Assembly (NCBI GenBank): GCA_947630355.1
Contig: CANRHJ010000001.1
Location: 1 to 42,670 of the forward strand
Direction: 5' to 3'
From: Candidatus Gastranaerophilales bacterium
GTDB taxonomy: Bacteria > Cyanobacteriota > Vampirovibrionia > Gastranaerophilales > Gastranaerophilaceae
DNA length: 42,670 nt
Below are positions 7,773 to 40,432 of the stretch, piece after piece. The notes under the pieces were generated by a model that saw only the letters and a program-made list of their open reading frames with translations, was not told the origin of the DNA and searched no databases. Position numbers and translations under genes: made by a program. Positions within the stretch are counted from its first letter, which is position 1. Each line of letters starts with the position of its first letter.

Positions 7773-9749
7773 ATGAAGTATATAAAATACATAGGAATAT
7801 TTTTAATTGTAATAATACCGAGCATAATAACAATATTAATATATAATGATAAAATAGCTCAAGATTCACCAAAATATTACAGACAAGGTGTAGAATTTTA
7901 TAATAACGGAGATTATTCAAACGCATACTATAATTTCGGTAAAATAAAATGGATAAGTCCTTTGTATACAACTGCAATATACAAGCAGGGCAAGGCTGCC
8001 GAAAAAGCGGGAGATTACGGCACTGCCGTTTTAAAATATAAATTATTTTTGGAGAAAAATCCCAATTCCATATTCTCCGGAACGGCAAGATACAATTTAG
8101 CAAAATGCTATTATTATCTGAAAGATTATGAAACAGCAAAAGCTCTGTTTACCGAAACTCAGACAAAAGATAAGAATAAATCAATTACGGTCAATTACTA
8201 TTTAGGTTTAACCGAGAAAAATATAAATAAAGAGCAGGCTGCCGATTATTTTATAAAATACTTGCAAGAAAACGGCGGGAACAGGAACTATGAGGTATCC
8301 GCAGCGGAAGAACTTGCATCTTTAGGCACAAATCTCACCGATGATGAAAAATTATTATTGGGAAAAACTTTTTACAATAATAAAAAGTATTTAAAATCAT
8401 TAGAATATTTATCCGTAATCCCTATGGATAAGTGCTGGGATTATTTAATACTTGCAAATCACAAGGCAGGGAACAAAGTTATAGCTAAAAAGCTCATAGA
8501 AAACGGCATTAGCACATTTTCCGACAAAATAAATAAGGAGAATTTGAATAAAATATATGATATATATACATCATACATGACCGGTACAAAATCGCGTAAT
8601 TGGACACAAATGCTGAAATTGATATCCAAACATTCATTAAGCGGGGAAGATTACGTTTTGTATAAGTTAGCACAAATGCAGCCCAAAGAAAAAGCAATAA
8701 CTTTATATACAAAAATAGCGGAGAAGTATCCCGAATCTGATTACGCTCCCGATGCCATACGCAATATATTTTGGCTTAAATATATGCAAAAAGACTATCA
8801 AGCTGCGGAAAATTTGGCATTAAACCATCTAAAAAAGTATAAGAACGTAAAATCAACCCCTCAAATTATGTTCTGGCTTGCAAAAATTTATCAAAAACAA
8901 AACAAAACAGGAGAAGCAAACAATGTATTAGCCAGATTAATTTCCAAATATCCCGATGATTATTACGGTTTGCGTGCAGAAGACATATTAAATAAAAAGA
9001 ATAATTTTTTTGAAACAAAATCAGGTAATAAATTACTTAAAAAGGATGAAGAACTTGCATTTCCGATATCATTATCAAATTTAGAGATAAAAGACTTTAA
9101 ATTAATAAATACTCTGTTTGCAATAGGTGATTATGAGATATGGCAAGATGCGGACTTTGAAAATCCCATAGCAGACAGCTGGTTTGAGGCAAGAAAGAAC
9201 AAGAAATCACGTTCAATTGTATTGGCAAGAGATGCTATAGGTAAGATGGAAATAAAACCATCAATATTAAGTGCGGCATATAAACTGGCATATCCGGCTT
9301 ATTGGACTGAAGAAATAAATATAGCTGCCAATAAATTACAATTGGATTCATATCTTATAACGGCATTAATACGGGAAGAAAGTTACTTCAATGAGCATGC
9401 CAGAAGTAATACAAATGCAATAGGATTAATGCAGTTAATGCCTTCTACCGCGAATTTTATGATATCTAAATTATCATTAGATATTCCTTTGCTCGCTGAT
9501 TTAGAAAATCCTAAAATCAATTTGTATATCGGATGTAATTATCTAAAATATTTGAAAGAAAAATTTAATAACGATTTATATACCGTCGCGGCATATAACG
9601 GAGGAGAAGGCTCCGTTCAAAAATGGATTAATACATACAATTCTGATGATTACGATGAATTCATTGAAAATATCCCGTTTTATGAAACTCAGAATTACGT
9701 AAAAAAAGTATTCCGTAGCTATCATATGTATAAAAAAATATATAATTAA
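7773..9749 (+). CDS. Soluble lytic murein transglycosylase (Slt70-like: superhelical TPR-like region + C-terminal SLT domain)
   Basis: 658 aa. N-terminal signal/anchor, long helical-repeat region, then SLT catalytic motifs LIREESYFNEHARSNTNAIGLMQLMPSTA and AAYNGGEGSVQKW. Confidence 0.88.
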   Translation: MKYIKYIGIFLIVIIPSIITILIYNDKIAQDSPKYYRQGVEFYNNGDYSNAYYNFGKIKWISPLYTTAIYKQGKAAEKAGDYGTAVLKYKLFLEKNPNSIFSGTARYNLAKCYYYLKDYETAKALFTETQTKDKNKSITVNYYLGLTEKNINKEQAADYFIKYLQENGGNRNYEVSAAEELASLGTNLTDDEKLLLGKTFYNNKKYLKSLEYLSVIPMDKCWDYLILANHKAGNKVIAKKLIENGISTFSDKINKENLNKIYDIYTSYMTGTKSRNWTQMLKLISKHSLSGEDYVLYKLAQMQPKEKAITLYTKIAEKYPESDYAPDAIRNIFWLKYMQKDYQAAENLALNHLKKYKNVKSTPQIMFWLAKIYQKQNKTGEANNVLARLISKYPDDYYGLRAEDILNKKNNFFETKSGNKLLKKDEELAFPISLSNLEIKDFKLINTLFAIGDYEIWQDADFENPIADSWFEARKNKKSRSIVLARDAIGKMEIKPSILSAAYKLAYPAYWTEEINIAANKLQLDSYLITALIREESYFNEHARSNTNAIGLMQLMPSTANFMISKLSLDIPLLADLENPKINLYIGCNYLKYLKEKFNNDLYTVAAYNGGEGSVQKWINTYNSDDYDEFIENIPFYETQNYVKKVFRSYHMYKKIYN

Positions 9750-12700
9750 TGCTGAGAAGAACTTAATTGACAAATCATTTTAAAATCTGTTTTTGCGCGC
9801 AAAATTTGTTCGGTAAGATTAGACAAATTTAATTCTTTTGAAGCGATTAACGCTCTGTTATATATCTCATTAACATTATTAACATTTATTTCATTATAAT
9901 TATTGCCGGATTTTATAACATCTTCCAAATACTGAGCAAATGCAATATAAAGCTGTATGGTTTGATATCTTAAATCATATTTTTTGGCAATAACAACAGC
10001 TTTTTCAAAATACATCTTTGCAGCATTATAATCAGCCTTTTTCTGATAGATTTTTGCAATATACATTCTGAAATAAATAATAAAGAAATTGTTATTAATT
10101 TTAGCACTTTGAGCAATTTCCAAAGATTTCAATGCGGTATTCAAAGCTTTATCATAATCGCCGTCATCAAAAGCATTTTGAACAATTAAAAGCCAAGACA
10201 ATAGCGCACCTATTGCAACTTTTTCCTTTGCAAAATAAGTTACTTCTTCATTATATATTTCTATTGCTTTTTTAATATTTCCCTCTTCTTTTAATACATA
10301 CCCGAGTATTAATTTAATTATATTTTTTATAAAGTTTTCATTAATATTATTAGCAAATGCAGCTAATTCAAACAAATCGGATTTTAATTCATTTTTATCA
10401 TCTAATAAAATTCTGTTGAAAATATTAATTAAGTTCCATTCAGCCAATAATTCGGGATCCAACTTTTTATTCTCGGACTTGTGTAAAATATTATTCAATA
10501 ATTCATTGGATTTATGTATATCTCCTTTTGCTGTATTGGCAAAAGCTTCAATTATATCAATCTGGAAACTGTAATATTCTTTGTTATATGAATAAATTTC
10601 AAGGAATTTTTTAATATCGGCAACTACATCAAAAACAACGGAATTACCTTGAATAGCGTAAGATTTGGCAAGAATAACTTTAGAATTCAGCCAAGCATCA
10701 ACAAGCAGAGAATTATATGATAAGTCGTTTTGCGCAACGTTCAAACATGTTTCTATATCGTTAATTATCTCCTCATTAACAAGATTAATTATTTGTTCGC
10801 TGTTTCCTATATTAAACAAAGCCTTTAATTTTCTTGATTTAATAAGAGCAATATCAACATCCGAGACGGTTTCATCAGAACCCGTAATAGCATTTATAAC
10901 AGAGTCAACAGCTTCGGCTGCGCCAAAATAATTTCCAGTTAAATAACAACTTTTTATAAAATAACTTGCATTATCAATAATTTTATTAATTCCTTCGGAT
11001 TTAATATCATAATCCAAAACATTGGAAAGATAACCCAATGCCTCCTGCGGGGATTTAATATAGAGCAATTTACCCAATTTTTCATAAATATCCAATTTTA
11101 AAGACTCAGAATCATCAAAGTTTTGCTCTTCAATAAGTTTTAAACACTGTTTTTGAGAAATAATATATAAATTAGTATCACCGAGCTTTGCACAAAGATT
11201 TGCGGTATCCTGCCATATTAAATATTCTTCTTCTTTTGTAAGCGCTTCCGTACACGATATTAATTTCTGCAAATTGCTTGATAATATTAAATCTTTTAAA
11301 ATCGTACAAATTTTTTCGGAGTTTTCTTTATATAATAAATCAGACTTAGCTTCTTGGTAAATCAATTTCCATAATTCCAGACTTTTAAATTCATAAGTAA
11401 AATTATCAACGGAATTTATAAAAAGTTCTTGTTTTAAGAAGTCTATAACCGAAGTAAAATTATCGCTGCTCATACCTGAGACATTTTCCAAAATTCCCGG
11501 AGAAAATCTGTATCCCAAAATAGCAGACATAAACAATACATTTTTTACAACAGGAACAAGTGTATTTAATCTGTGTTTAATAAGTTCTTCAAAAGAAGCA
11601 AAAATTTGAGGTTTATTTTCTTCATTTATTATGATTTCGCTTTCATTTACGGTAATATAGCCGCTGCTGAACAATAAAGCGGCTTCCTGTTCAAGTCTTA
11701 AAGCATTTCCGTTTGAGTTATTAATTATTTTATCCAGGTATTCTTTATCTATTATATTTCTCAAGTCAATATTTAATGATTTTTTGACAGTATCATTCAT
11801 TTCTTCATTTGTTAATTTCTCCAAAGTTAATACTTCAAAAATACCCTCATTTGATTTAGATAAGTCAAAATAGCTTTGAATAGGTTTGTCTTCTCTGTAA
11901 GCAATTAATAATTTCAACCTGTTGTTAAAATAACCGCGACGGAGCAAATACATTATAAAATCATAAGAAGCACCGTCCAATAATTCAAAATTATCTATAC
12001 AAATGACCAAGTTACTGTTCAAAGAAAAAGACTTAATAACTTTCTCTAATATTTCAAACGTATACTGCTTATTAGATAAGATATTTTCAAAATTATCCGT
12101 TTCTGAGGGATAAAAAATATTTAAGAAATCTTCCAGTTCTTCGTTATTAAGGAAATTAAACATTTTAAGAAAATTGCTTTTTTTGAAATCCTTAATAAAG
12201 GAATCATAATTAACGGTATATGTCGGAAATCCCATTATTCTTAAAAAAGCATCCTGAATAAAACCAAAACTGGTGATTTGAATTAAAGGAGTACAATTTC
12301 CGTAAAGGAATATATAGCCGTTTTGTGAAAGTTTTGCTCTGCATTGATTGAGAACAGCGGTTTTTCCGCATCCTTCAGGGCCGTTTATAGCTATAATATG
12401 CTTGTTTATTGATGTTTTTATCAGGTTTAATATATTTTTTACGGCTTGAGGTTTTATTTCAATTTTATTGTATTCTTCATTTACGCCTGTATTAACGGTA
12501 TTTTCATTATTTTGAGCTTCGTCAATACTTTTTTGTACATCTTCGTCAATAAATTCTTCCAAATTTTCAACAGTAAGCTCATCAATAAGTTCATCTTGCG
12601 TATCAGGAGATTGAGTTTCATTTTGTTCTTCAGATGTTTGTTCATCTGCCATAAATATTTTTTCCGGGTGTTCATCGGAATTTAATTCAGTATCATCACT

Positions 12701-13150
12701 GTCTGTATCGGATGTGTCTTGAGCATTTTCCTCATTATAATCAGTTTCATCATTTAAGTGACTTTCATTTTCCTCTGTATACTCGGAAGTATCATCAGGT
12801 ATTGAATTTGGGAAATCTTTTACGTCATCATTTATATCGCTGACAAACTCGCTTTGATCAGACGAGAAAGAAGAAACAATTTCAACTTGATCTTGTTCTA
12901 TCGTGAGCGGTATTTCATTGACAATATTAAAATCATGGTTACATTTTCTGCAATATGCTGCATCAGCCAGATTAACGGCATTACACGACGGGCATTTCTT
13001 TAATAATTCGGCACCGCAAGTTTTACAGACAAAACTTCCGAATGGATTAAGAGTATTACAATGATTACACAACATATTAACCTTAATCCCACAATGAGGA
13101 CATCTGAGAACATTATCAGATATTTCAGCTCCGCATTTACGACATTTCAT
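9746..13150 (-). CDS. Triple zinc-ribbon / acidic linker / P-loop STAND-type (AAA_16-like) ATPase / TPR-like helical-repeat protein
   Basis: 1134 aa. Six CxxC pairs in the first 70 aa (CRKC..CPHC..CNHC..CKTC..CPSC..CRKC) give three zinc ribbons. A D/E/N/T-rich linker of about 150 aa follows. Walker A is INGPEGCGKTAV and Walker B-like is LVICIDNFELLD. The remaining ~650 aa are helical repeats with TPR-like A/Y/L spacing. No recognisable output domain. Confidence 0.75.
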   Translation of the reverse strand: MKCRKCGAEISDNVLRCPHCGIKVNMLCNHCNTLNPFGSFVCKTCGAELLKKCPSCNAVNLADAAYCRKCNHDFNIVNEIPLTIEQDQVEIVSSFSSDQSEFVSDINDDVKDFPNSIPDDTSEYTEENESHLNDETDYNEENAQDTSDTDSDDTELNSDEHPEKIFMADEQTSEEQNETQSPDTQDELIDELTVENLEEFIDEDVQKSIDEAQNNENTVNTGVNEEYNKIEIKPQAVKNILNLIKTSINKHIIAINGPEGCGKTAVLNQCRAKLSQNGYIFLYGNCTPLIQITSFGFIQDAFLRIMGFPTYTVNYDSFIKDFKKSNFLKMFNFLNNEELEDFLNIFYPSETDNFENILSNKQYTFEILEKVIKSFSLNSNLVICIDNFELLDGASYDFIMYLLRRGYFNNRLKLLIAYREDKPIQSYFDLSKSNEGIFEVLTLEKLTNEEMNDTVKKSLNIDLRNIIDKEYLDKIINNSNGNALRLEQEAALLFSSGYITVNESEIIINEENKPQIFASFEELIKHRLNTLVPVVKNVLFMSAILGYRFSPGILENVSGMSSDNFTSVIDFLKQELFINSVDNFTYEFKSLELWKLIYQEAKSDLLYKENSEKICTILKDLILSSNLQKLISCTEALTKEEEYLIWQDTANLCAKLGDTNLYIISQKQCLKLIEEQNFDDSESLKLDIYEKLGKLLYIKSPQEALGYLSNVLDYDIKSEGINKIIDNASYFIKSCYLTGNYFGAAEAVDSVINAITGSDETVSDVDIALIKSRKLKALFNIGNSEQIINLVNEEIINDIETCLNVAQNDLSYNSLLVDAWLNSKVILAKSYAIQGNSVVFDVVADIKKFLEIYSYNKEYYSFQIDIIEAFANTAKGDIHKSNELLNNILHKSENKKLDPELLAEWNLINIFNRILLDDKNELKSDLFELAAFANNINENFIKNIIKLILGYVLKEEGNIKKAIEIYNEEVTYFAKEKVAIGALLSWLLIVQNAFDDGDYDKALNTALKSLEIAQSAKINNNFFIIYFRMYIAKIYQKKADYNAAKMYFEKAVVIAKKYDLRYQTIQLYIAFAQYLEDVIKSGNNYNEINVNNVNEIYNRALIASKELNLSNLTEQILRAKTDFKMICQLSSSQH

Positions 13151-13791: not shown

Positions 13792-16548
13792 TTATATTTT
13801 TATTACCACTTTTAGATAATACTTATCTGCCATTAAAGCGCCCTCATTGAGAATTGGGGTTTTTTCTCCTTCAAAAGTTTCTTTAATACTTTGTAACACA
13901 ATATCATCAATTTGCTTTGAACCGCTGGTTTCCGAAATCATATCGCGTAATATATTTCCGTTATTATCAATAGCCAGCTTAACAACAACCTTATCTGTTT
14001 TAGGTGTTTCCATTGCTGAAAGTATATTCTTTCTTAAATTCAATTTAAGGATATCATCTGTTTTTTGCAGATAAGATTTAAATGTTTTGTCCGTAAACAG
14101 CTGAGGAGAACATAACCAGCTGACTTCTTTTATTGATACGGAAGAATTAGATGTCGAAAATGCATTTGTAATAGCCTTATTTACATCTTCGGTCGGTTGG
14201 TTTTGTTCGGGAAGTATATTATTTTCCGTTAATTGCGGGAATTCAACATTATCACCGTTTGCGGGATTAGGTATTTGAATACGAATCGGTTGATCTGAAT
14301 TCGGTGCAATATCAGGAATTTCGATATTTTGAGGCGTTTGGTTATTTTGTTCAGAATTAATATCAAAATAGATATCTCCGGGTATATCAAGCTGATTATT
14401 ATTTTGTTCCTGTACGGCATTGTTGGTATTATTTGCGGCTATTTGGCTATTATTATTTGAATTTTTCATTATAAAGAAAGCACCTATTCCCAAGCTGATA
14501 ACAACCAAAGCAATAATAAGGGATAATACCACTACATTTTTTGATGATTTAGCTTCATTTTCGTCAGCTTCATCATTGTCATCATCATATTCTTCATACT
14601 CTTCGTTTTCATCGGAATATTCTTCGTTCTCATCGGAATACTCTTCGTTCTCGTCGGAATATTCTTCGTTTCCTTCGGAATACTCTTCATTTCCTTCGGA
14701 ATATTCCTCGCCGCCATCTTTATATTTCTCAAATTCGACTTGATTATCTTCATTCAAATCCTGCGAAGAAGCATCTTCCACAATATCGTCGGATTTTTCA
14801 TCTTCATTATATATAATATCTTCATCCTGTGATACATCTTCTTCGGAAGGATATTCTTCAAATGTTTCTTCATTTGTTATATCAGCGGTTTCTTCAATAT
14901 TATCAATATCCGAAGTATTATTATCATCATCTTTGTATTCAATAATTTCATCATTTTCGGTTATATCGGGATTTTGAAGTTCCACGCCGTTAGCGGAGTC
15001 ATCTTCAATAATATTTAAATCGGCATTTTCCTGCAAACTTTCCGGTGCTTTGTCCGAAGTTACTACTTCAACATTCTTGACATAGTCAATAGTTCTGGCT
15101 CCGCCGTTATTTATATGAGATAAATCCTCAGAAGAGTCTTCATAAGCCGGATAAGGTTCAAATTTAGAATTTAAAAGATCTTCATCGGAAAGTTCACTGT
15201 AATTAGTATCAAAATCGGCAGATTTTTCATCTTCTGGCGGAACATTTGTTATATACGAATAAATCGGTTCACCCGTTTCATCATAATCCACTATTACTTT
15301 TTGAACCGACTCTTTTGTCTCGCTAAACATAGGTTCATTCAGTATTTCATCATCAGTTTTTTGCTCATCACTTTCTATAAACTGAATATCCGATTTATTG
15401 CCGGCATCTTCTACTATATTTAATTCATTATCGTTTAAATTATTATTTTGCTGTTCATCAATAACTCTTAAATCATTCATATCTATTTTGTCATTCAGAA
15501 TTTCCAAATTATCATCTTTATCCTCAATAATATCTGTCAATTCCTCATTATCCAAAATTTGAAGTTCCTCATCTGAGGGCAGCTCGGATACAGAAGGTTG
15601 TATCTCTTCAACATTTTCATCGGGAGAAATAAATTCTTCATCTTCATTAAACAGTTCATCCAAAATATCGGAAACCGTTTCTTCTTGCTCATCATCCTTA
15701 TTTTCCTCTTTATTTTCCGAAAAATCGGTCAGAGTATCAGTATTATCATCTTGTGATTGATTGAAATATACCGTTTCTTCTTTACCTTCGTATTGTTTAT
15801 CTTCAGCAGCCTGAGCACCTACAATTTTAAGAGTATAATCTTCAAAGAGTTCGGGATATTTTCCTATAGAAGAACTTACCATTTCAAAGCCCGTAAAACA
15901 GCAGAATTCCGTTCTGCACTGTTCACATTCAAATAAATGTTTTATTATTTTAGTCTTTAAATTATCATCTATTTCATCATCCAGCAGTGTTAAATAGTTA
16001 TTTTTAAATAATTCATGCTCCGATTCGCCGAAATCGGTAATTTTAGGTTTATTTATTTTAGTTAAAAATTCATCAAAAGAAATAAGTTCCTTAACGGATA
16101 CTTTACAATATTTATAATCAAGCGGTTCTTTTTTAATTAATGCGGTATCGCAAAATCCCGCCAAAGTAAACGAGCTTAAATTTTTATCGGTTTTAACAAC
16201 AGCATAAAAATCGGGTTCTAAGCCTTTGTCAAAATGAATTTTCGGAACTAAAAATTCATTTCCCTGAGTCATTACTCTTACATCTATATGCCAATTATTA
16301 ACATAAACATCACATATTTCATATTCCTCGTTAAGCTGAGGATTTCTGTATAAAGTCATGGATTTTTTTACTTGATTATCAGTCTTTTCCAGAAGTTTAA
16401 TTAAACTGTTCAAAGCAATTATTGAGGCATAAGCTCTTTTACGCTGCAGTTCATCTTTGAGCAAAGATGCATAAATTTTTGCATAACTATAAGCTTTTTC
16501 ATCTGTTTCCAATGTATACATTTTATCCGTTGTCATAAAATTCTCCAT
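13792..16548 (-). CDS. Giant single-pass membrane protein. Domain order: N-terminal DUF1822-like domain, ZAS (zf-HC2) anti-sigma motif, ~430-aa acidic disordered region, TM helix, N/Q/P-rich region, TonB-C-like domain
   Basis: 918 aa; RBS AGAAGGA 4 nt before the ATG. ZAS signature H-x25-H-x3-C-x2-C in SEHELFKNNYLTLLDDEIDDNLKTKIIKHLFECEQCRTEF (DNA about 15904-16026). TM helix VVVLSLIIALVVISLGIGAFFIM (DNA about 14466-14534). C-terminus VVVKLAIDNNGNILRDMISETSGSKQIDDIVLQSIKETF resembles TonB_C. The N-terminal 170 aa (AYASIIALNSL...DFYAVVKTDKNLSSFTLAGF) resemble the cyanobacterial DUF1822 pattern, from memory only. Confidence 0.7.
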   Translation of the reverse strand: MENFMTTDKMYTLETDEKAYSYAKIYASLLKDELQRKRAYASIIALNSLIKLLEKTDNQVKKSMTLYRNPQLNEEYEICDVYVNNWHIDVRVMTQGNEFLVPKIHFDKGLEPDFYAVVKTDKNLSSFTLAGFCDTALIKKEPLDYKYCKVSVKELISFDEFLTKINKPKITDFGESEHELFKNNYLTLLDDEIDDNLKTKIIKHLFECEQCRTEFCCFTGFEMVSSSIGKYPELFEDYTLKIVGAQAAEDKQYEGKEETVYFNQSQDDNTDTLTDFSENKEENKDDEQEETVSDILDELFNEDEEFISPDENVEEIQPSVSELPSDEELQILDNEELTDIIEDKDDNLEILNDKIDMNDLRVIDEQQNNNLNDNELNIVEDAGNKSDIQFIESDEQKTDDEILNEPMFSETKESVQKVIVDYDETGEPIYSYITNVPPEDEKSADFDTNYSELSDEDLLNSKFEPYPAYEDSSEDLSHINNGGARTIDYVKNVEVVTSDKAPESLQENADLNIIEDDSANGVELQNPDITENDEIIEYKDDDNNTSDIDNIEETADITNEETFEEYPSEEDVSQDEDIIYNEDEKSDDIVEDASSQDLNEDNQVEFEKYKDGGEEYSEGNEEYSEGNEEYSDENEEYSDENEEYSDENEEYEEYDDDNDEADENEAKSSKNVVVLSLIIALVVISLGIGAFFIMKNSNNNSQIAANNTNNAVQEQNNNQLDIPGDIYFDINSEQNNQTPQNIEIPDIAPNSDQPIRIQIPNPANGDNVEFPQLTENNILPEQNQPTEDVNKAITNAFSTSNSSVSIKEVSWLCSPQLFTDKTFKSYLQKTDDILKLNLRKNILSAMETPKTDKVVVKLAIDNNGNILRDMISETSGSKQIDDIVLQSIKETFEGEKTPILNEGALMADKYYLKVVIKI
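14587..14716 (-). repeat. In-frame 21-bp tandem repeat (about 6 copies) encoding (N)EEYS[ED][GE]N heptads inside the acidic region of the anti-sigma-like protein
   Basis: The + strand units TCGGAATATTCTTCGTTCTCA / TCGGAATACTCTTCGTTCTCG / TCGGAATATTCTTCGTTTCCT / TCGGAATACTCTTCATTTCCT / TCGGAATATTCCTCGCCGCCA start at 14612 and are spaced 21 nt apart, with a degenerate copy upstream. The protein reads EEYSEGNEEYSEGNEEYSDENEEYSDENEEYSDENEEYEEY. Confidence 0.9.
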
Positions 16549-26487: not shown

Positions 26488-27524
26488 TGCAGCTTAGTGA
26501 ATTTGATTATGATTTACCGGAAAGTTTAATAGCGCAAACACCCGCGCAAAAACGTGAATTATCCAGAATGCTTGTCTTGGACAGAAAATCACAATCCGTT
26601 CTTCATAAACATTTTTACGATATAACCGACTTTTTAAATGAAAATGATTTGCTCGTCTTAAATAATACGAAAGTTATACCGGCAAGACTTTACGCAAAAA
26701 AGGATACCGGCGCACTTATCGAAATATTTCTTGTAAGGGAATACGAAAAAAATAAATGGATTACTCTTATAAAACCATCCAAACGAGTTAAAGATGGTAT
26801 GGTTTTAAGTATTTCGGATGAACTGTCCGTTAAAATTCTTAATAAATCTGATGATAAATGGTGCGTGGAGTTATTGTATGACGGAAATATTTTTGAAATC
26901 CTTGATAAAATCGGACATATTCCGCTTCCGCCGTATATTGAAAGAAATATGACAGATGAACAATATAAAGCACTTGATTTTGACAGATATCAAACGGTTT
27001 ATGCACAAAAACCCGGAGCCGTAGCTGCTCCGACAGCGGGACTGCATTTTACCGATGAAATTCTTAAAAAGCTTGAAAATAAAGGGGTACAACACTGTTT
27101 TATTACCCTTAATGTCGGTTTGGGAACTTTTAAACCTGTTAAATGCGATAATATACTTGAGCATAAAATGGATTCCGAGCAGTTTGAAATTTCCGAAAAA
27201 TCTGCCGAAATTATTAATAATGCCGTAAAAAACGGCAAAAAAATCACTGCCGTCGGTACCACATCCGTAAGAACGCTTGAAACCGTCATGAACAAATACG
27301 GTGAAATTCTTCCAGTAAAAGATTCAAGTGAATTATTCATTTATCCCGGTTATAAATTTAAAATCACAGATAAACTTATAACCAATTTTCATCTGCCCAA
27401 ATCTACTCTTATTATGCTCGTAAGTGCTTTTGCGGGAAAAGAATTTATCTTTAAAGCCTATCATGAAGCCATACGAAACAAATACAGATTTTACAGTTAC
27501 GGTGATTGTATGTTTATAAGGTAA
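26487..27524 (+). CDS. queA: S-adenosylmethionine:tRNA ribosyltransferase-isomerase
   Basis: 345 aa. Motifs: FDYDLPESLIAQTPA, GHIPLPPYI, YQTVYA...GAVAAPTAGLHFT, VGTTSVRTLE, HLPKSTLIMLVSAF. Confidence 0.95.
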   Translation: MQLSEFDYDLPESLIAQTPAQKRELSRMLVLDRKSQSVLHKHFYDITDFLNENDLLVLNNTKVIPARLYAKKDTGALIEIFLVREYEKNKWITLIKPSKRVKDGMVLSISDELSVKILNKSDDKWCVELLYDGNIFEILDKIGHIPLPPYIERNMTDEQYKALDFDRYQTVYAQKPGAVAAPTAGLHFTDEILKKLENKGVQHCFITLNVGLGTFKPVKCDNILEHKMDSEQFEISEKSAEIINNAVKNGKKITAVGTTSVRTLETVMNKYGEILPVKDSSELFIYPGYKFKITDKLITNFHLPKSTLIMLVSAFAGKEFIFKAYHEAIRNKYRFYSYGDCMFIR

Positions 27525-29890
27525 TAATTATGTTTTTCATATCAGCTGCTTTAACTTGTTTCTCATCATATTTAATAACTTCATTTTTAATGAAATCACA
27601 GAATAAACAAGATGAAGGAATATTATATTTCTTTCTTATCTGTTTTGCTCAAATAGTTTTAAGCTTTGAAATTTTATCATTGGCACAAGCCATTACCTGC
27701 CGCAATTTCATTATTGCCAACGTAATATTTGTATTAATTTCATTATTTCTAATCCGATTGGGCATAACGAAATCCGATTCAACCGAGACTTGTAATCTTT
27801 CCAGTACGCATAATTTTTCTTGCATATTTTCTAAATATAAATTATATAAACCTAATTTTACGGATGACATAAGAAAGATTAAAAATGCATTAAATCGTGA
27901 TAAGTATTTAAAATATATTTCGTATTTTTTCATATTTTTCTTTATATGCGAAATTGTATTAATGACGATATTTCCGGTATACTACGGGGATGCTATGGCG
28001 TGCTACCTGCCGAGAGTAACCTCTTGGTTCCAGCAAGGAAGTATTAATCATTTCTTCTCACCTGATATAAGAGAAGTTATTATGCCTGTCAACATGGATT
28101 TATTATATCTTTGGTACTTAATGTTCCGCAAAGAAGAAGCAGGAATAGGTATTTTTTCTTTTATTTCTTTCATTTGTTCCATATATACTTTATACCGTTT
28201 ATTGGGCGAGCTGGGATTTTGTACAAGGAAAAAATTGTGGAGCATTTTTGTTTTTGCATCATTTGCAATCATCGGAATAATGTCCGTTATTCCCACCTCT
28301 GATTTGTTTACGGGAACTTTACTTCTTATTTCTTTATACCTTTATTTGATTTCAGTTAAATATTGTCCCAGAAAATTTCGCTCACGTTCCTTATCGCAAA
28401 ATTTTCAAGTGGCAACTTTAAAAGGTGAGCACTTGTACGGCGACGATGAGCGGAATTTCGGACGGATGCAAGTCCGGGTAAGCGAGGGTAAAGCGAGTGC
28501 AAGACGAAGTCGTGCGAGCGGCTATTCCGAGCAAAAAGAAATTTCAAGACAGTCGGCGGAAATGTGCGACACTAGATTAGATAAAAATAATGTATCCTTA
28601 TACATTTCAAGTTTATCATTGGCACTGGCCTTATCAACAAAAACTATAGCTATTATAGCTTGTCCTTCACTTTTATTTGTATTTTTAATAATTTCACTTT
28701 TATACAGAAAACAAACAAGTATAAATTTATTTTTTAAATTCATTATTTTATTTGTTTTAAATTTTCTGATTTTTTCAAGTTACAACTATATTTTAAACTA
28801 TATAGATTATAACAACCCCGCATCGAGCATAGAACACTATATGATACATAAATTTCGCGGCGGATTTAAAGGATATATTTTCAATCTTATTAACTATACT
28901 TTTTTAATTTTCGATTTTTCAGGTATTGATACTATTGATTTTTATAATAATTTTATAACCGATACTTTAAAACACCTTATATCACTGACAGATAAAAATC
29001 CCTATCGTTTTATGTCACCGTTTTTTATGGGATTATACGAATATAATTCAAATTATAATCCGGTTGGCTCAGGGTTGGGTGTTATGGGATTAATAGCTTT
29101 TGTACCCGCTCTTTTCTATACGTTCTTCTCGGGTTTAAAAAAATTTTTTAAATGTCATAAATGTTCCAAAAGCCGTATTATTCTGTTTATGCTTGCTTCC
29201 TTTTTCATATTTAATTTTCTTATTTTCCCTCTCGTTATGGTTTTTATAAAATATAACATCAGATATTTTGTCAATTTCCTTGTTGTTACCTCGCCTATTT
29301 TAGTTTTCACTTATATTAAATCCAATAAGAATTTTTATAAACTATTAACTGTTTTCTTTATTTTCATTTATCTTTTTATAATACCGTTCAGAAATAACTT
29401 ATCATATATATACAGCTACATAACTTTAAAAAAACAAGAAAATTTAATTGATGCTTTTGAAGAATTATTTTCTTTTAGAAACGAAGAAAAAGAAATATAC
29501 AATTTTATAATATCTGAGGATAAATCTAAAAAGTATCTTTTGCTGCAGCTCGGCTTCAAAAACAGAATATTTGATATAGAAAAGCTGAAATTTCGAGGAT
29601 ATGTCATTGATAAACTACCCATTGAAGATATTAAGAATTATGATTTATCCGAATATGACTATATAATTGCAGCAATCCCTGAAATAAAGAATGCAAATAT
29701 TAAAAATCCGAATAATACGGAATGTTATTATGTGGATTATATGAAAAACATCATACCCACAGATAACAAGAATGCCGTTAAAATTGAAGCAAGATGCAAA
29801 ACTCCGATAAAATATTTTGAGCAGCAGGGATTTAACCCCATAACAAACATAATATTGCCGAGCTACTTAATTTTTAAGAAGGCTAAATAA
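27506..29890 (+). CDS. Large polytopic membrane protein, GT-C-fold glycosyltransferase-like (ArnT/PMT_2-like), interrupted by an in-frame hydrophilic GC-rich insert
   Basis: 794 aa, twelve or more hydrophobic helices, aromatic-rich loops and a C-terminal soluble ~190 aa. An alternative start at ATG 27530 just clears the queA stop. The family call is only by general architecture. Confidence 0.5.
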   Translation: MYVYKVIIMFFISAALTCFSSYLITSFLMKSQNKQDEGILYFFLICFAQIVLSFEILSLAQAITCRNFIIANVIFVLISLFLIRLGITKSDSTETCNLSSTHNFSCIFSKYKLYKPNFTDDIRKIKNALNRDKYLKYISYFFIFFFICEIVLMTIFPVYYGDAMACYLPRVTSWFQQGSINHFFSPDIREVIMPVNMDLLYLWYLMFRKEEAGIGIFSFISFICSIYTLYRLLGELGFCTRKKLWSIFVFASFAIIGIMSVIPTSDLFTGTLLLISLYLYLISVKYCPRKFRSRSLSQNFQVATLKGEHLYGDDERNFGRMQVRVSEGKASARRSRASGYSEQKEISRQSAEMCDTRLDKNNVSLYISSLSLALALSTKTIAIIACPSLLFVFLIISLLYRKQTSINLFFKFIILFVLNFLIFSSYNYILNYIDYNNPASSIEHYMIHKFRGGFKGYIFNLINYTFLIFDFSGIDTIDFYNNFITDTLKHLISLTDKNPYRFMSPFFMGLYEYNSNYNPVGSGLGVMGLIAFVPALFYTFFSGLKKFFKCHKCSKSRIILFMLASFFIFNFLIFPLVMVFIKYNIRYFVNFLVVTSPILVFTYIKSNKNFYKLLTVFFIFIYLFIIPFRNNLSYIYSYITLKKQENLIDAFEELFSFRNEEKEIYNFIISEDKSKKYLLLQLGFKNRIFDIEKLKFRGYVIDKLPIEDIKNYDLSEYDYIIAAIPEIKNANIKNPNNTECYYVDYMKNIIPTDNKNAVKIEARCKTPIKYFEQQGFNPITNIILPSYLIFKKAK
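28364..28575 (+). other. Compositionally foreign G+C-rich segment embedded in frame in the membrane protein gene (candidate small inserted element or structured RNA)
   Basis: Hand count of 28421-28540 gives 65/120 G+C (54%) against about 25-30% in the flanks. It encodes the only long charged stretch in the protein (RKFRSRSLSQNFQVATLKGEHLYGDDERNFGRMQVRVSEGKASARRSRASGYSEQKEISRQSAEMCDTRL). It is also open on the opposite strand (28356..28547). The core is bracketed by the imperfect direct repeats GCAAAATTTTCAAGTGGC (28395) and GCAAAAAGAAATTTCAAGAC (28531). Confidence 0.55.
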
Positions 29891-37464: not shown

Positions 37465-38055
37465 TCAAATAACTTTATCAATTAAACCGTACTCTACAGC
37501 CTCTTGAGCAGACATATAGTTATCACGTTCGGTATCCGCATAGATTTTTTCAACCGTCTGACCTGTATGTTCAGCTAAAAGTGTATTTAATTCTTTTTTC
37601 ATTCTTAAAATTTCTTTTGCTTCAATTTCTATATCCGTAGCCTGTCCTTTAGCACCGCCCAAAGGTTGATGTATCATTATTCTTGCACTTGGAAGCGCCA
37701 TTCTTTTCCCTTTTGTACCGCCTGATAAGAGAAAAGCACCCATTGATGCAGCTTCACCTATACATATCGTACTTACGTCGGCTCTTATATGCTTCATAGT
37801 ATCATATATTGCCATACCTGCCGTTATTACACCGCCGGGACTGTTTATATACATCATTACATCTTTTTCGGGATTTTCGGAATCCAACAATAATAATTGC
37901 GCTACTATTGAATTCGCCAATTCATCATCAATTTCCTCGCCCAAAAATATTATCCTTTCTCTTAATAATCTTGAGAATATATCAAAAGATTTTTCACCCC
38001 TTGATGATGATTCTATAACCGTCGGCACATAACTTAAAATTCTTTTGCTGTCCAT
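37465..38055 (-). CDS. clpP: ATP-dependent Clp protease proteolytic subunit
   Basis: Start trimmed to ATG 38055 (RBS AGAGG). Motifs: VPTVIE...[20 protein letters not shown], catalytic Ser in [11 protein letters not shown], His in IMIHQPLGG, Asp in ERDNYMSA. Confidence 0.96.
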
Positions 38056-38126
38056 ATAAACCTCTATTCCTATTAAATATATACAACAATTAGAAATTTT
38101 ATACAATATCTGATAAAATAAATATT

Positions 38127-38663
38127 ATGATTATTGATAATACGTATATCGCATACGATTTTATGACGGATTTTAACGGGCCCAAACGTCATTTTCCGGC
38201 ACCTTTTTATCCTACGGGATTATATGATAATGAAAAACCCGAATATCTGCACGGCCCGGACTCATCTATTTATCCTAATCTTACGCTGCCGTGCAATCTC
38301 TACGATGAATGGGGAAACATTATTCCTTTGGGTTTCTATATGGTCGCTCTTTCTCAAGATATGAAATTCCTCGACTTATATCAAAGCAATAAACTGAAAG
38401 CTAAAGTCAAAGTAGTTAAGCTTGTTGAAAAAATGTACACCCAAGATGAAATCGATGAAGAATCTAAAATAATAACGAAATTGGAAAACGCTAAGCTTAA
38501 GAAAAAACTGAAAAAAATGAGAGAAGCGGAAGAAGAACTTACTGCCTTTAAAGAACGTGTCGCAGCCGAAAGCTATGCAGAGATATTCGATTCAGGCAAA
38601 GGATATTATATTTTAAAATATAACTGCAACGGAAAGCAGGCTGAAGGTATTATTCAAAAATAA
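38127..38663 (+). CDS. Hypothetical soluble protein (globular N-terminal half + K/E-rich coiled coil)
   Basis: 178 aa, no TM segment and no motif I recognise. Divergent from clpP. 81 nt upstream of the FlhA-C-like gene on the same strand. Confidence 0.5.
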   Translation: MIIDNTYIAYDFMTDFNGPKRHFPAPFYPTGLYDNEKPEYLHGPDSSIYPNLTLPCNLYDEWGNIIPLGFYMVALSQDMKFLDLYQSNKLKAKVKVVKLVEKMYTQDEIDEESKIITKLENAKLKKKLKKMREAEEELTAFKERVAAESYAEIFDSGKGYYILKYNCNGKQAEGIIQK

Positions 38664-38744
38664 CCCTGTTTTTTTCTTAAATTAATGTTATTATAGAAGA
38701 ACAGATATTTGCGTAATTAATAATTAATAAACAAGGAATCTTTT

Positions 38745-40205
38745 ATGTATAAACCTACAAGAAATATGTATACAATAAAAAAATCCCCGTATAACGACAA
38801 TGAAAAGCTGGAAACACTACTTAACGATATGGCAAAAAACGGCTGGGAAATATATTCTATGCAGGAAGCAGAAGAAGATGACGAGGTCTTTTATAACTGC
38901 ATTTTTATTAAAGAAACACCAATCGATGAGCTGGCATTAAATGAAGATTCCGATTTGCTTAATTTCAAATCAAAAATAGAAAGAATAATTAATCCCGAGC
39001 TTGACCCTTATGAACTTTGTATTGATATTCAGAAAAAAATAAAAGAAAAACGTCAAAAAATTGCTCAGGTTAAATCGCTTATTGACGAAACATCCGAAGA
39101 CTCCAGAACCGTTCTAAATGATGAAATTTCCAAACATATTAACGAACTTGATGAATTAAAAAAGAAACTCGCAAAAGTTATTAATCCCGATGTAATGGAA
39201 CAAAAACTTTATACTCCCAAAATCACTCTTTCTATTTCGGAAGAATTAATGGATATTCTTGATAATGATTATGAGTATAATATGCTTTCGCAAATAGTTT
39301 TAACAAGACAGAATTTAACCGAAACTTTGGGATATATTATTCCGAAAATCAAATTTGAAATAGATGACAGCTTGGAAGAAAACGAATTTGCAATAAAAAT
39401 ACGAGGCATTCCGGTTATCAATTCTCACGCATACTGCGGTTATAATATGTTCTTTAAAAATGAACTTAACATTGAAAAAATTCAAGGAGATTTCTATACA
39501 GATAAAGACAAAATTACCGATTTGGATATTATATGGATTAACGAAGAACAGTCAAAAGACTTTTGGACAAAGGGTATTGATACCACCGATTATATCGCGC
39601 GTCTGCTTGAATATACCGTTACCAAATATATTGATGATATTTTTGACTACTCCGATGTTAACAGATATATTGAAATAGTAGGAAATCAAAATCTTTATCT
39701 TATTGAAAATATAATACCAGATTATTTATCGGTTGCAGAATTAAAATATATCCTCACAAATTTAATAAAAGAAAAAGTTTGTATTAAAGATATCGTCTAC
39801 ATCTTTGAAAAAATAAATGATTTCGCTGATGAAACAGATAAAGATGAACTGTTGGAAAGAATAAGAGTCTCTCTTGCCAGACAAATCAGTAATTCTCTGA
39901 TTTCAGAAACTGATAATACAATTCACGCTTTTGAATTAACAAATGAATCAATAAAATTGTTCTCGGGGAAAAATGATGACGACGTAATCAGGATTGAAAG
40001 CAATAAAATTGAAGCAATTACGGATAAAATAAAAGAGCAGGTTCAAAAATTTGAACCCGATTTAAAAGAAATAATATTAATTGTACCCATGAAACTGAGA
40101 CACTTAATTTTTCTTATATTATCTCAATTGATTCCGAATATTCGCGTGATTGCAAGGGAAGAACTGTTGTTTGATTATCCCTTAAAGATAATCAGCAATA
40201 TTTAA
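38745..40205 (+). CDS. Soluble FlhA/FHIPEP cytoplasmic-domain homolog fused to an N-terminal DUF4177-like module and a coiled coil; no membrane domain
   Basis: 486 aa. Residues about 155-486 are collinear with the FlhA linker plus cytoplasmic domain as I remember Salmonella FlhA. Matches: ITLSISEELMDILD ~ LEVEVGYRLIPMVD; LGYIIPKIKFEIDDSLEENEFAIKIRGIPV ~ MGFLPPVVHIRDNMDLQPARYRILMKGVEI; DLDIIWINE ~ GLDAIWIE; ELKYILTNLIKEKVCIKDIVYIFEKIND ~ TLHKVLQNLLAEKVPIRDMRTILETLAE; RIRVSLARQI ~ VVRVALGRAI. The N-terminus LETLLNDMAKNGWEIYSMQ...NCIFIKE is DUF4177-like. There is no hydrophobic helix anywhere. Confidence 0.8.
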   Translation: MYKPTRNMYTIKKSPYNDNEKLETLLNDMAKNGWEIYSMQEAEEDDEVFYNCIFIKETPIDELALNEDSDLLNFKSKIERIINPELDPYELCIDIQKKIKEKRQKIAQVKSLIDETSEDSRTVLNDEISKHINELDELKKKLAKVINPDVMEQKLYTPKITLSISEELMDILDNDYEYNMLSQIVLTRQNLTETLGYIIPKIKFEIDDSLEENEFAIKIRGIPVINSHAYCGYNMFFKNELNIEKIQGDFYTDKDKITDLDIIWINEEQSKDFWTKGIDTTDYIARLLEYTVTKYIDDIFDYSDVNRYIEIVGNQNLYLIENIIPDYLSVAELKYILTNLIKEKVCIKDIVYIFEKINDFADETDKDELLERIRVSLARQISNSLISETDNTIHAFELTNESIKLFSGKNDDDVIRIESNKIEAITDKIKEQVQKFEPDLKEIILIVPMKLRHLIFLILSQLIPNIRVIAREELLFDYPLKIISNI

Positions 40206-40432
40206 GCATTATAAACATTCTTGGCAATATAACTGTTTAAATTACGTCTTAAATTTGACAGCCTGACGTTCATTTGATTTCTCAAATTTTGACACCTTAT
40301 TGTATCGGCAATAATATTAAATTCCATATCGGATAAAGAGTTATGTCTGACGGTATTGACTAAATCAGATGCTTCACTTCTTTGAATTCTTTCTGTTAAA
40401 CTTGTTCCGAAACTTATTGGTGATATTCTCAT
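40202..40432 (-). CDS. Small protein sharing the ISP[IV]SF N-terminal motif with paralog A
   Basis: 76 aa; RBS AAGGAA. MRISPISFGTS compares with MISPVSFRAS (16740) and SCSFGKK (17425). The rest is helical and R/N-rich with no TM segment. Its stop overlaps the stop of the convergent FlhA-C-like gene (TTAA). Confidence 0.5.
   Translation of the reverse strand: MRISPISFGTSLTERIQRSEASDLVNTVRHNSLSDMEFNIIADTIRCQNLRNQMNVRLSNLRRNLNSYIAKNVYNA

Follow-up and report, generated by a model that had tools for sequence, protein, structure and literature searches.

What is the cytoplasmic domain of a flagellar export gate doing as a free-standing protein, encoded at a locus with no flagellar gene beside it? 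The question is raised by a gene at positions 38745..40205 (+ strand) of a 42,670-nucleotide stretch from Candidatus Gastranaerophilales bacterium (assembly GCA_947630355.1, contig CANRHJ010000001.1, positions 1-42,670, forward strand), hereafter the window. The C-terminal cytoplasmic domains of FlhA and SctV (FlhA-C and SctV-C) serve in all flagella and injectisomes as the platform on which the delivery of substrates is put in order, and to our knowledge they have been studied only as part of the membrane gate. An earlier note, made from the DNA letters, had read the gene product as a soluble FlhA-C protein for which no function has been described, and offered three roles for it (a decoy or regulator of an export gate encoded elsewhere, a scaffold reused outside type III secretion, or part of a split gate).

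Here we report that this protein is a lineage-specific, membrane-less paralog of the FlhA cytoplasmic ring domain, and that it is under purifying selection across Gastranaerophilales. The features associated with the ring are retained, while those of chaperone docking and of the export cycle have been exchanged for new conserved residues, a pattern which indicates changed function and not decay. The domain itself is known; what is new is an architecture without a membrane part, the choice of functional sites that are kept or lost, and a dedicated partner gene. Neither soluble or truncated FlhA paralogs, nor such a partner, nor functional sites altered in this way are described in the searchable literature, so that the earlier statement about a missing function stands, and automated annotation labels the family members simply as "FHIPEP family type III secretion protein" or "FlhA".

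Identity and fold of the protein

The open reading frame (ORF) comprises 486 codons and a stop, and is identified by matches in Pfam, NCBIfam, the PDB and Foldseek. Its ATG start is supported by the N-terminus MYKPTRN, common to all homologs, and is preceded at a distance of 7 nt by a ribosome-binding site, AAGGA (38733..38737, + strand, read from the sequence), which is also found in the relatives at loci L001, L003 and L094. The Pfam family FHIPEP matches with E=4.5e-49, above its gathering score of 29.1, and aligns residues 138-474 with profile positions 321-652 of 657, that is, with the C-terminal half only. Similarly, the FlhA model TIGR01398 (E=4e-43) aligns residues 136-486 with model positions 323-678 of 678, although its 147.6 bits lie below the whole-protein equivalog cut-off of 772.1; the SctV model TIGR01399 scores 85 bits (E=4e-24) against a cut-off of 692. 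The best sequence match in the PDB is the FlhA-C of B. subtilis (3mix; E=6e-20, or 3e-32 with the family profile), followed by the FlhA-C of Salmonella, Helicobacter and Vibrio and then by several SctV-C structures. A single-chain AlphaFold2 model of the protein (mean predicted local distance difference test score, pLDDT, 69) aligns with FlhA-C and SctV-C structures over about 343 columns, with Foldseek E-values of about 1e-21 to 1e-16 and a target-normalised TM-score of 0.6. Profile and structure comparisons are both significant, and residues ~125-486 are the FlhA linker followed by the four-subdomain cytoplasmic domain.

The gene, on the + strand, can be divided accordingly. The linker-like segment (aa 125-160, 39117..39224) aligns to FlhA ~319-360 and carries a P148-D149 motif. 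Subdomains 1 and 2 (aa 161-299, 39225..39641) contain, in the column tallies, the sequence SEEL at 165-168, the invariant R188 and an altered chaperone-docking dimple (D255, T258 and R286). Subdomain 3 (aa 300-381, 39642..39887) is the most conserved block of the family, with a mean column conservation of 0.68, and has a motif in common with canonical FlhA (...LSV.ELKYIL..LIKEKVSIKDIVYIFEKINDF), while subdomain 4 (aa 382-486, 39888..40202), assigned by alignment to that of FlhA-C, is the least conserved (0.44).

The absence of a membrane region claimed by the earlier note is borne out. No transmembrane segment was found, since in the N-terminal 440 residues the 19-residue windows never rise above 1.6 on the Kyte-Doolittle scale, and the sole hydrophobic peak (1.73, residues 442-461) lies inside the stretch aligned with subdomain 4; the same method gives 5-7 segments, starting from residue ~12, in canonical relatives. 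A tblastn search of all reading frames of the window detected nothing left over from an FlhA membrane domain.

Conservation and phylogeny

The best 120 homologs are all 483-489 aa long, cover the full query and are 68-78% identical to it, and those which are named belong to Candidatus Gastranaerophilales or Melainabacteria. An exhaustive search of 50%-identity representatives extended the family by about 18 clusters that share this full-length architecture, are 476-507 aa long and reach down to 33% identity; one of them comes from an NCBI metagenome-assembled genome (MAG) of Gastranaerophilales. In this phyletic profile, the full-length architecture has been seen so far only in the Gastranaerophilales lineage. 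When the window gene is compared with three orthologs, the nonsynonymous divergence (dN) is 0.17-0.21 and the synonymous divergence (dS) is saturated, with dN/dS of about 0.1.

These data also dispose of a pseudogene fragment, frameshift or assembly artefact of a normal flhA, an explanation to which we give practically no weight. The presence of only the C-terminal half of FHIPEP would fit it; against it stand the conserved full-length family (a constant length in at least 120 clusters, and 476-507 aa with a conserved N-terminal domain in more than 130), the dN/dS of about 0.1, the lack of any membrane-domain remnant in the window and the position of the family in the tree. In a rough neighbour-joining tree of C-domains, the soluble family forms its own clade, apart from the other canonical FlhAs and from a clade that joins the canonical protein P0150 with a second unusual group, in which a soluble N-terminus ("M..FDYK.FAE") is followed by 0-5 hydrophobic segments and then by a complete FlhA-C (hereafter FDYK-type). 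Within its own order, the soluble family shares no more than 27-30% identity with canonical FlhA-C and, given this separate clade, it is therefore an old paralog and not a recent truncation.

Functional sites kept and lost

In order to map known functional sites on the family, we tallied the columns of the aligned C-domains of 18 soluble, 33 FDYK-type and 9 canonical proteins, with the Salmonella numbering set by comparing the F459A mutant chain 6ai2 with the wild type 6ch1 in the profile alignment. In Salmonella FlhA, R391 forms an inter-subunit salt bridge with E351 of the neighbour's linker, and the R391A substitution abolishes rings. The equivalent residue, R188, is an arginine in all 18 soluble proteins, in 32 of the 33 FDYK-type and in all 9 canonical ones. 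Also retained in the soluble family are G399 (G196), P403 (P200) and, in 18/18 members, the tryptophan after the dimple. In the linker, a proline at 148 (14/18) and an acidic residue at 149 (15/18) align to the Glu-351 region, as in canonical FlhAs, with an uncertainty of 1-2 residues.

The chaperone-docking dimple (D456, P457, F459, T490 and H491) is changed throughout the soluble family, in which only the acidic D456 is kept. P457 is a proline in 4/18 soluble against 9/9 canonical proteins; position 459 is aromatic in a single soluble member, and Thr or Ser in 15/18, whereas it is aromatic (Phe) in 7/9 canonical proteins; no soluble member has Thr or Ser at T490, against 8/9 canonical; and H491 is a histidine in 1/18 against 9/9. 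The GYXLI motif (G in 9/9 and Y in 7/9 canonical proteins), which has been proposed as a structural switch for the open-close motions needed in export, is replaced by S165-E166-E167-L168 (S in 17/18, E or D in 17/18 and E in 18/18), and the proline after it is found in 2/18 soluble against 8/9 canonical proteins.

Family-specific N-terminal parts

In place of the membrane domain, the protein carries two regions specific to the family. The first is a small alpha/beta domain (aa 1-57, 38745..38915, + strand), to which the AlphaFold2 secondary structure assigns a beta-alpha-beta-beta order (strand 7-15, helix 19-31, strands 35-44 and 47-57) and whose conserved residues include L26, N27, W34, E41 and F54. 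The earlier note had called it DUF4177-like, a label that is weakly supported: DUF4177 (PF13783) aligns ~25 residues of the window protein with E=0.013 and 16.1 bits (gathering score 25), and weak matches (E<=0.1) recur in 9 of the 18 diverse members, the best with E=0.0032 and none at the gathering score. DUF4177 is, however, the only Pfam family besides FHIPEP that recurs across the 18 members, and the predicted topology is compatible with it; a possible relationship is what can be retained, and the searchable literature holds nothing relevant on the function of DUF4177.

The second is a conserved helical, K/E-rich region (aa 73-124, 38961..39116, + strand), defined by model helices and by a motif, FKS.IERI..P...PYE.C..IQ.KIKEKR...LN.E, which is kept down to 33% identity. 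The model places helices at 75-82, 88-113 and 118-145, so that the K/E-rich helical stretch described earlier is indeed present (88-113 and 118-145). Canonical FlhA has no counterpart of aa 73-124, and alignments begin at about aa 122-125. Because they occupy the place of the membrane domain, the N-terminal domain and the helical region are obvious tether candidates; they might substitute for the membrane tether and link assembly to something else.

A conserved gene upstream

Directly upstream, on the same strand, lies a gene for a 178-aa protein with no known domain (38127..38663), identified by conserved synteny and separated from the FlhA-C gene by 81 nt in which no terminator-like site was found on the + strand. 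The same arrangement, with a gap of 46-81 nt, occurs in the window, in L001-L004 and in L094-L101, that is, in every fetched locus of the window's clade, even though the genes further upstream differ (clpP-ROK-holA, SRP54 and others). At L102-L104 the place of the partner is taken by divergent homologs of it (173 and 172 aa; profile E=2e-39 and 1e-29); the flanks again differ, and the neighbouring FlhA-C members have 51% and 44% identity with the window protein. The partner family comprises 110 clusters, all of 176-181 aa, with no relatives elsewhere. Among its clusters on contigs of at least 3 kb, 28/64 are on contigs of a size identical to that of an FlhA-C cluster. Its dN/dS of about 0.1 denotes purifying selection.

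The partner has no match in Pfam, NCBIfam, PADLOC, PHROG or a PDB sequence-profile search, and its best Foldseek hit has an E-value of 0.11. Its model (pLDDT 70) starts with a conserved, low-confidence tail of ~46 residues rich in Pro, Tyr and Phe; a beta-sheet comes next, then a K/E-rich helical hairpin (106-147) and finally beta strands at the C-terminus.

The other flanking ORF is a convergent one of 76 aa (40202..40432, - strand), recognised by synteny in the closest relatives, which overlaps the stop codon of the FlhA-C gene by 4 nt. The relatives closest in synteny, L098-L101, have it at the same position with 67% amino acid identity, whereas L001, L003, L008, L009, L094 and L096 lack it; it has no family match in Pfam, PADLOC or PHROG. 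It is probably a real small gene, though no family-wide partner; thus, of the two small neighbours singled out by the earlier note, the upstream one holds up and the downstream one is limited to the closest relatives.

Genomic and lineage context

The remainder of the window is ordinary chromosome (gyrB, yidC, queA, miaA, holA/holB, clpP and others, from Pfam searches on all ORFs). No flagellar or injectisome gene is among these Pfam calls, and tblastn with the same-order FlhA transmembrane domain, FliE/F/G/H/I/S/T and flagellin gave nothing in the window at E<0.2, in agreement with the earlier description of the gene as an orphan. This description fits the locus but probably not the genome. 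According to the literature, a full set of flagellar genes is present in about a quarter of Gastranaerophilales, and the others have a subset, which in the supplementary table of Soo et al. consists of FlgB/C/F/G, FlhA, FlhB, FliE, FliI, FliJ, FliP and FliR; in the same work, the non-flagellated genomes are without hook, filament, motor, C-ring, FliS, FliT, FlgN and flagellin. The order thus keeps FlhA, FlhB, FliP/R, FliI/J and rod proteins even when non-flagellated.

Canonical FlhAs of flagellated members, such as P0380 (698 aa), are encoded in clusters of the type fliS-fliT ... fliE-fliF-[333-aa]-fliH-flhA, with flagellin nearby. With P0380 as a query, canonical FlhA was found in at least 12 species genomes titled Gastranaerophilales, Melainabacteria or Vampirovibrio, with 79-95% identity.

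A possible role and its alternatives

The explanation that we favour, tentatively and as somewhat less than an even prospect, is that the protein is a ring-capable cytoplasmic FlhA-C scaffold which has given up chaperone docking and export-coupled motions, and which serves a new client (most plausibly the 178-aa partner), probably together with the export core of the order. In this mechanism, the FlhA-C gene would be co-transcribed with the partner, and the paralog would assemble in the cytoplasm into a ring or oligomer like that of FlhA-C. It would no longer dock chaperones of the FliS/FliT/FlgN type nor cycle with the export gate, and would act instead as a static scaffold, whose remodelled groove could be filled by the aromatic-rich N-terminal tail of the partner. 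The most likely context would be a flagellar-type export apparatus kept after the loss of hook, filament and motor, where the scaffold might function as an accessory sorting or holding platform; this context is favoured by the export core that non-flagellated members of the order keep, by the membrane FlhA loci present on low-GC Gastranaerophilales contigs, and by a flagellin gene located 4 kb from a family member in the MAG GCA_028696075.1.

Several observations weigh against this proposal. The argument for a ring is built on a few conserved positions, with a linker alignment uncertain by 1-2 residues, and the binding of the partner to FlhA-C is deduced from synteny. For the two members that branch deepest in the family (36% and 33% identity), no partner is detectable in the surrounding 10 kb; upstream of the deep-branching member at L008 there is a 190-aa gene that encodes a signal peptide and is not the partner. 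As regards the export context, the 10 kb around the FlhA-C gene are free of export-apparatus genes in at least 12 loci (L001-L004, L009 and L094-L104), the one exception being a flagellin gene at L008, and a by-eye comparison of sizes revealed no contig common to the lists of soluble and membrane FlhAs. Additionally, four assemblies with the soluble paralog (GCA_028696075.1, GCA_949290715.1, GCA_947588745.1 and GCA_947624325.1) are not among the canonical-FlhA matches listed, which proves nothing either way.

The lack of linkage to export genes also supports the main rival, that the fold has been exapted, in which case FlhA-C and partner would form a cytoplasmic platform in a process outside type III secretion and the export apparatus of the genome would be irrelevant. 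The housekeeping neighbours (clpP, SRP54, holA/B and S30AE), the loss of all the export-linked signatures (dimple and GYXLI), the gain of a new N-terminal domain and of an orphan partner, and the clear modularity that the domain shows here (FlhA-C in tandem, or fused to a peptidase or to FliI) all agree with it. Yet the protein retains both the linker of FlhA and a ring contact of the R391 type, the only lineage in which the family has been seen so far keeps a flagellar-type export core, and in one genome a flagellin gene is adjacent, so that we consider it doubtful, if still a serious competitor. Clearly lower in our estimate stands a decoy or negative regulator, a free FlhA-C that would draw off chaperone-substrate complexes, or the ATPase complex of FliH, FliI and FliJ, and so keep them from the gate. 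In favour of it, export in Salmonella is reported to be inhibited when FlhA-C is overproduced, the paralog still has the part of the linker to which FliJ binds in canonical FlhA, and genes for FliS and FliT are present in the flagellated members of the order. The titration of chaperone-substrate complexes is nevertheless weakened because the residues that dock FlgN, FliS and FliT (F459 and T490, with P457 and H491), which canonical proteins keep, are systematically replaced in nearly all members. Moreover, FliS, FliT, FlgN and flagellin are missing from the non-flagellated genomes of the order (Soo et al.), yet the family is widespread and strongly conserved, and a dedicated conserved partner would not be expected of a simple decoy.

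The least probable of the functional alternatives, and a very unlikely one, is a split gate, with the membrane half of FlhA encoded separately and the paralog supplying the cytoplasmic ring. The N-terminal domain and helical region could dock a membrane partner, and the order does have unusual FlhA architectures; however, the canonical 698-aa and the remodelled ~600-700-aa membrane FlhAs each carry a complete FlhA-C, no FHIPEP gene with only the transmembrane part was seen, and the export-linked motifs are lost. Taken without regard to its setting, a machine made of free cytoplasmic FlhA-C and partner, either outside type III secretion or as a new substrate-holding ring stage of a stripped-down export apparatus, appears to us possible but rather unlikely; if true, it would be the first natural soluble export-gate ring.

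Whichever setting applies, a soluble FlhA-C present throughout an order is a natural separation-of-function variant since, with the ring contact kept and the dimple and GYXLI lost, it shows which features serve assembly and which serve export. It also offers a lead to what non-motile gut Melainabacteria do with their reduced sets of flagellar genes, a question open since 2013-2014, and suggests that a scaffold has been given a new job in a gut relative of cyanobacteria. The finding gains some biological relevance from a report that, in non-industrialised human populations, Gastranaerophilales are prevalent symbionts of the gut.

Comparison with known FlhA and SctV proteins

Compared with FlhA (PF00771/TIGR01398), the paralog is collinear with FlhA ~320-690 through the linker and the four subdomains, and the two have in common R391, G399, P403, the tryptophan after the dimple and the helix-loop-helix of subdomain 3. 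It differs in lacking the eight-helix membrane domain and the FHIPEP loop, in its new N-terminal domain and helical region, in having SEEL for GYXLI and substitutions at P457, F459, T490 and H491, and in not lying beside export genes. The SctV proteins (YscV, InvA, MxiA and CdsV) share the four-subdomain fold (Foldseek E 1e-16 to 1e-18), but they are membrane proteins from injectisome loci, and the sequence of the paralog is closer to FlhA. A further parallel is the orphan FlhA of Chlamydia (CT060/Cpn0363, PRK05910), since both are FlhA homologs at a locus, or in an organism, without a flagellum. The chlamydial protein keeps its membrane domain. Its full-length model (NF004571, 584 positions) matches the window protein weakly (E=2.6e-7). 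The paralog has no membrane domain and has a dedicated soluble partner. For the chlamydial FlhA, work together with another secretion apparatus has been proposed (PMC2830194).

The FDYK-type proteins come from the same lineage, have likewise a non-canonical architecture around FlhA-C and keep R391. Unlike the soluble family, they have up to five hydrophobic segments, mostly retain G368, P457, an aromatic residue at 459 and H491, adjoin fliF-fliG-fliH-fliI (as seen for one member on a contig of 31.7% GC), and group in the tree with the canonical P0150. As for the DUF4177 proteins, the likeness consists of the beta-alpha-beta-beta order of the N-terminal 57 residues and of recurrent weak matches.

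Other FlhA-C architectures of the lineage

The FDYK-type accounts for at least 33 clusters (50% identity level) of the 150 representatives nearest to the window protein. Its members, such as those at L006 10001-11923 (P0159) and L007 3631-5553, lie on Gastranaerophilales-like contigs of ~32% GC, have a soluble N-terminal part of ~190 aa and are encoded divergently from an M48 peptidase-fliF-fliG-fliH-fliI cluster. Over their N-terminal ~160 aa they resemble, with 38-53% identity, the N-terminal half of a ~333-aa protein that has no annotation (L010 8275-9276, and L011-L025 at the same position). In all canonical flagellar loci of Gastranaerophilales, the gene for this protein stands between fliF and fliH, the place where fliG would be expected; the likeness suggests a fusion of that protein with FlhA. 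Another membrane-less architecture is represented by P0148 (895 aa) and P0288 (952 aa), with two tandem FlhA-C domains and no predicted transmembrane segment. In precomputed Pfam annotations, relatives of the FDYK-type occur as fusions with a Peptidase_M10 domain or with an ATP-synt_ab/type III secretion ATPase (FliI-like) domain (P0300, P0301, P0306 and P0307, ~928 aa; P0305 and P0309, ~1040 aa). With its remodelled, tandem and fused forms, FlhA-C appears to be a reusable module in this lineage.

Two contigs that encode a Gastranaerophilales-type FlhA are titled otherwise, "uncultured Muribaculaceae bacterium" (L014, CAZKJV010000080.1; 95% identity) and "uncultured Acinetobacter sp. RUG672" (L015, ONVC01000010.1; 86%), and are likely mislabelled MAGs or contaminating contigs. 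The FlhA-C region is also matched by phrog_12657, a PHROG of unknown function (E~1e-27), and weak FlhA-C-like stretches (22-26% identity) occur in two unannotated "Bacteriophage sp." contigs from human stool (MT835480.1 24296-25291 and MT835847.1 4710-5414), which may be misclassified bacterial contigs. An origin from a defence system or a phage was considered and rejected: there is no PADLOC match and no IMG/VR match, and phrog_12657 could be traced only to these two contigs.

Further observations on the loci

The flagellin gene at L008 (10013-10855; 280 aa, with Flagellin_N and Flagellin_C) lies 4 kb downstream of a deep-branching soluble member (GCA_028696075.1, JAQVHS010000005.1). Downstream of the FlhA-C gene, and convergent with it, some loci have two conserved Pfam-less genes (~295 and ~320-336 aa, 47-50% identical between loci; L001 11526-13404, L003 11496-13188 and L094 11632-13486, minus strand), which are absent from the window. 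Within the window, a poorly annotated 1134-aa protein (9746..13150, - strand) combines zinc ribbons, AAA_16 and TPR, and two large ORFs have no Pfam match (13792..16548, - strand, 918 aa; 27506..29890, + strand, 794 aa). A promoter scan was uninformative in the AT-rich DNA of the locus. Finally, the clpP ORF next to the partner gene (37465..38106, - strand) is listed with a TTG start 16 codons upstream of an ATG (MDSKRILSY...); because the called orthologs are 196 aa long, the ATG near 38058 is the likelier start, which would leave a divergent intergenic region of ~68 nt shared with the partner gene.

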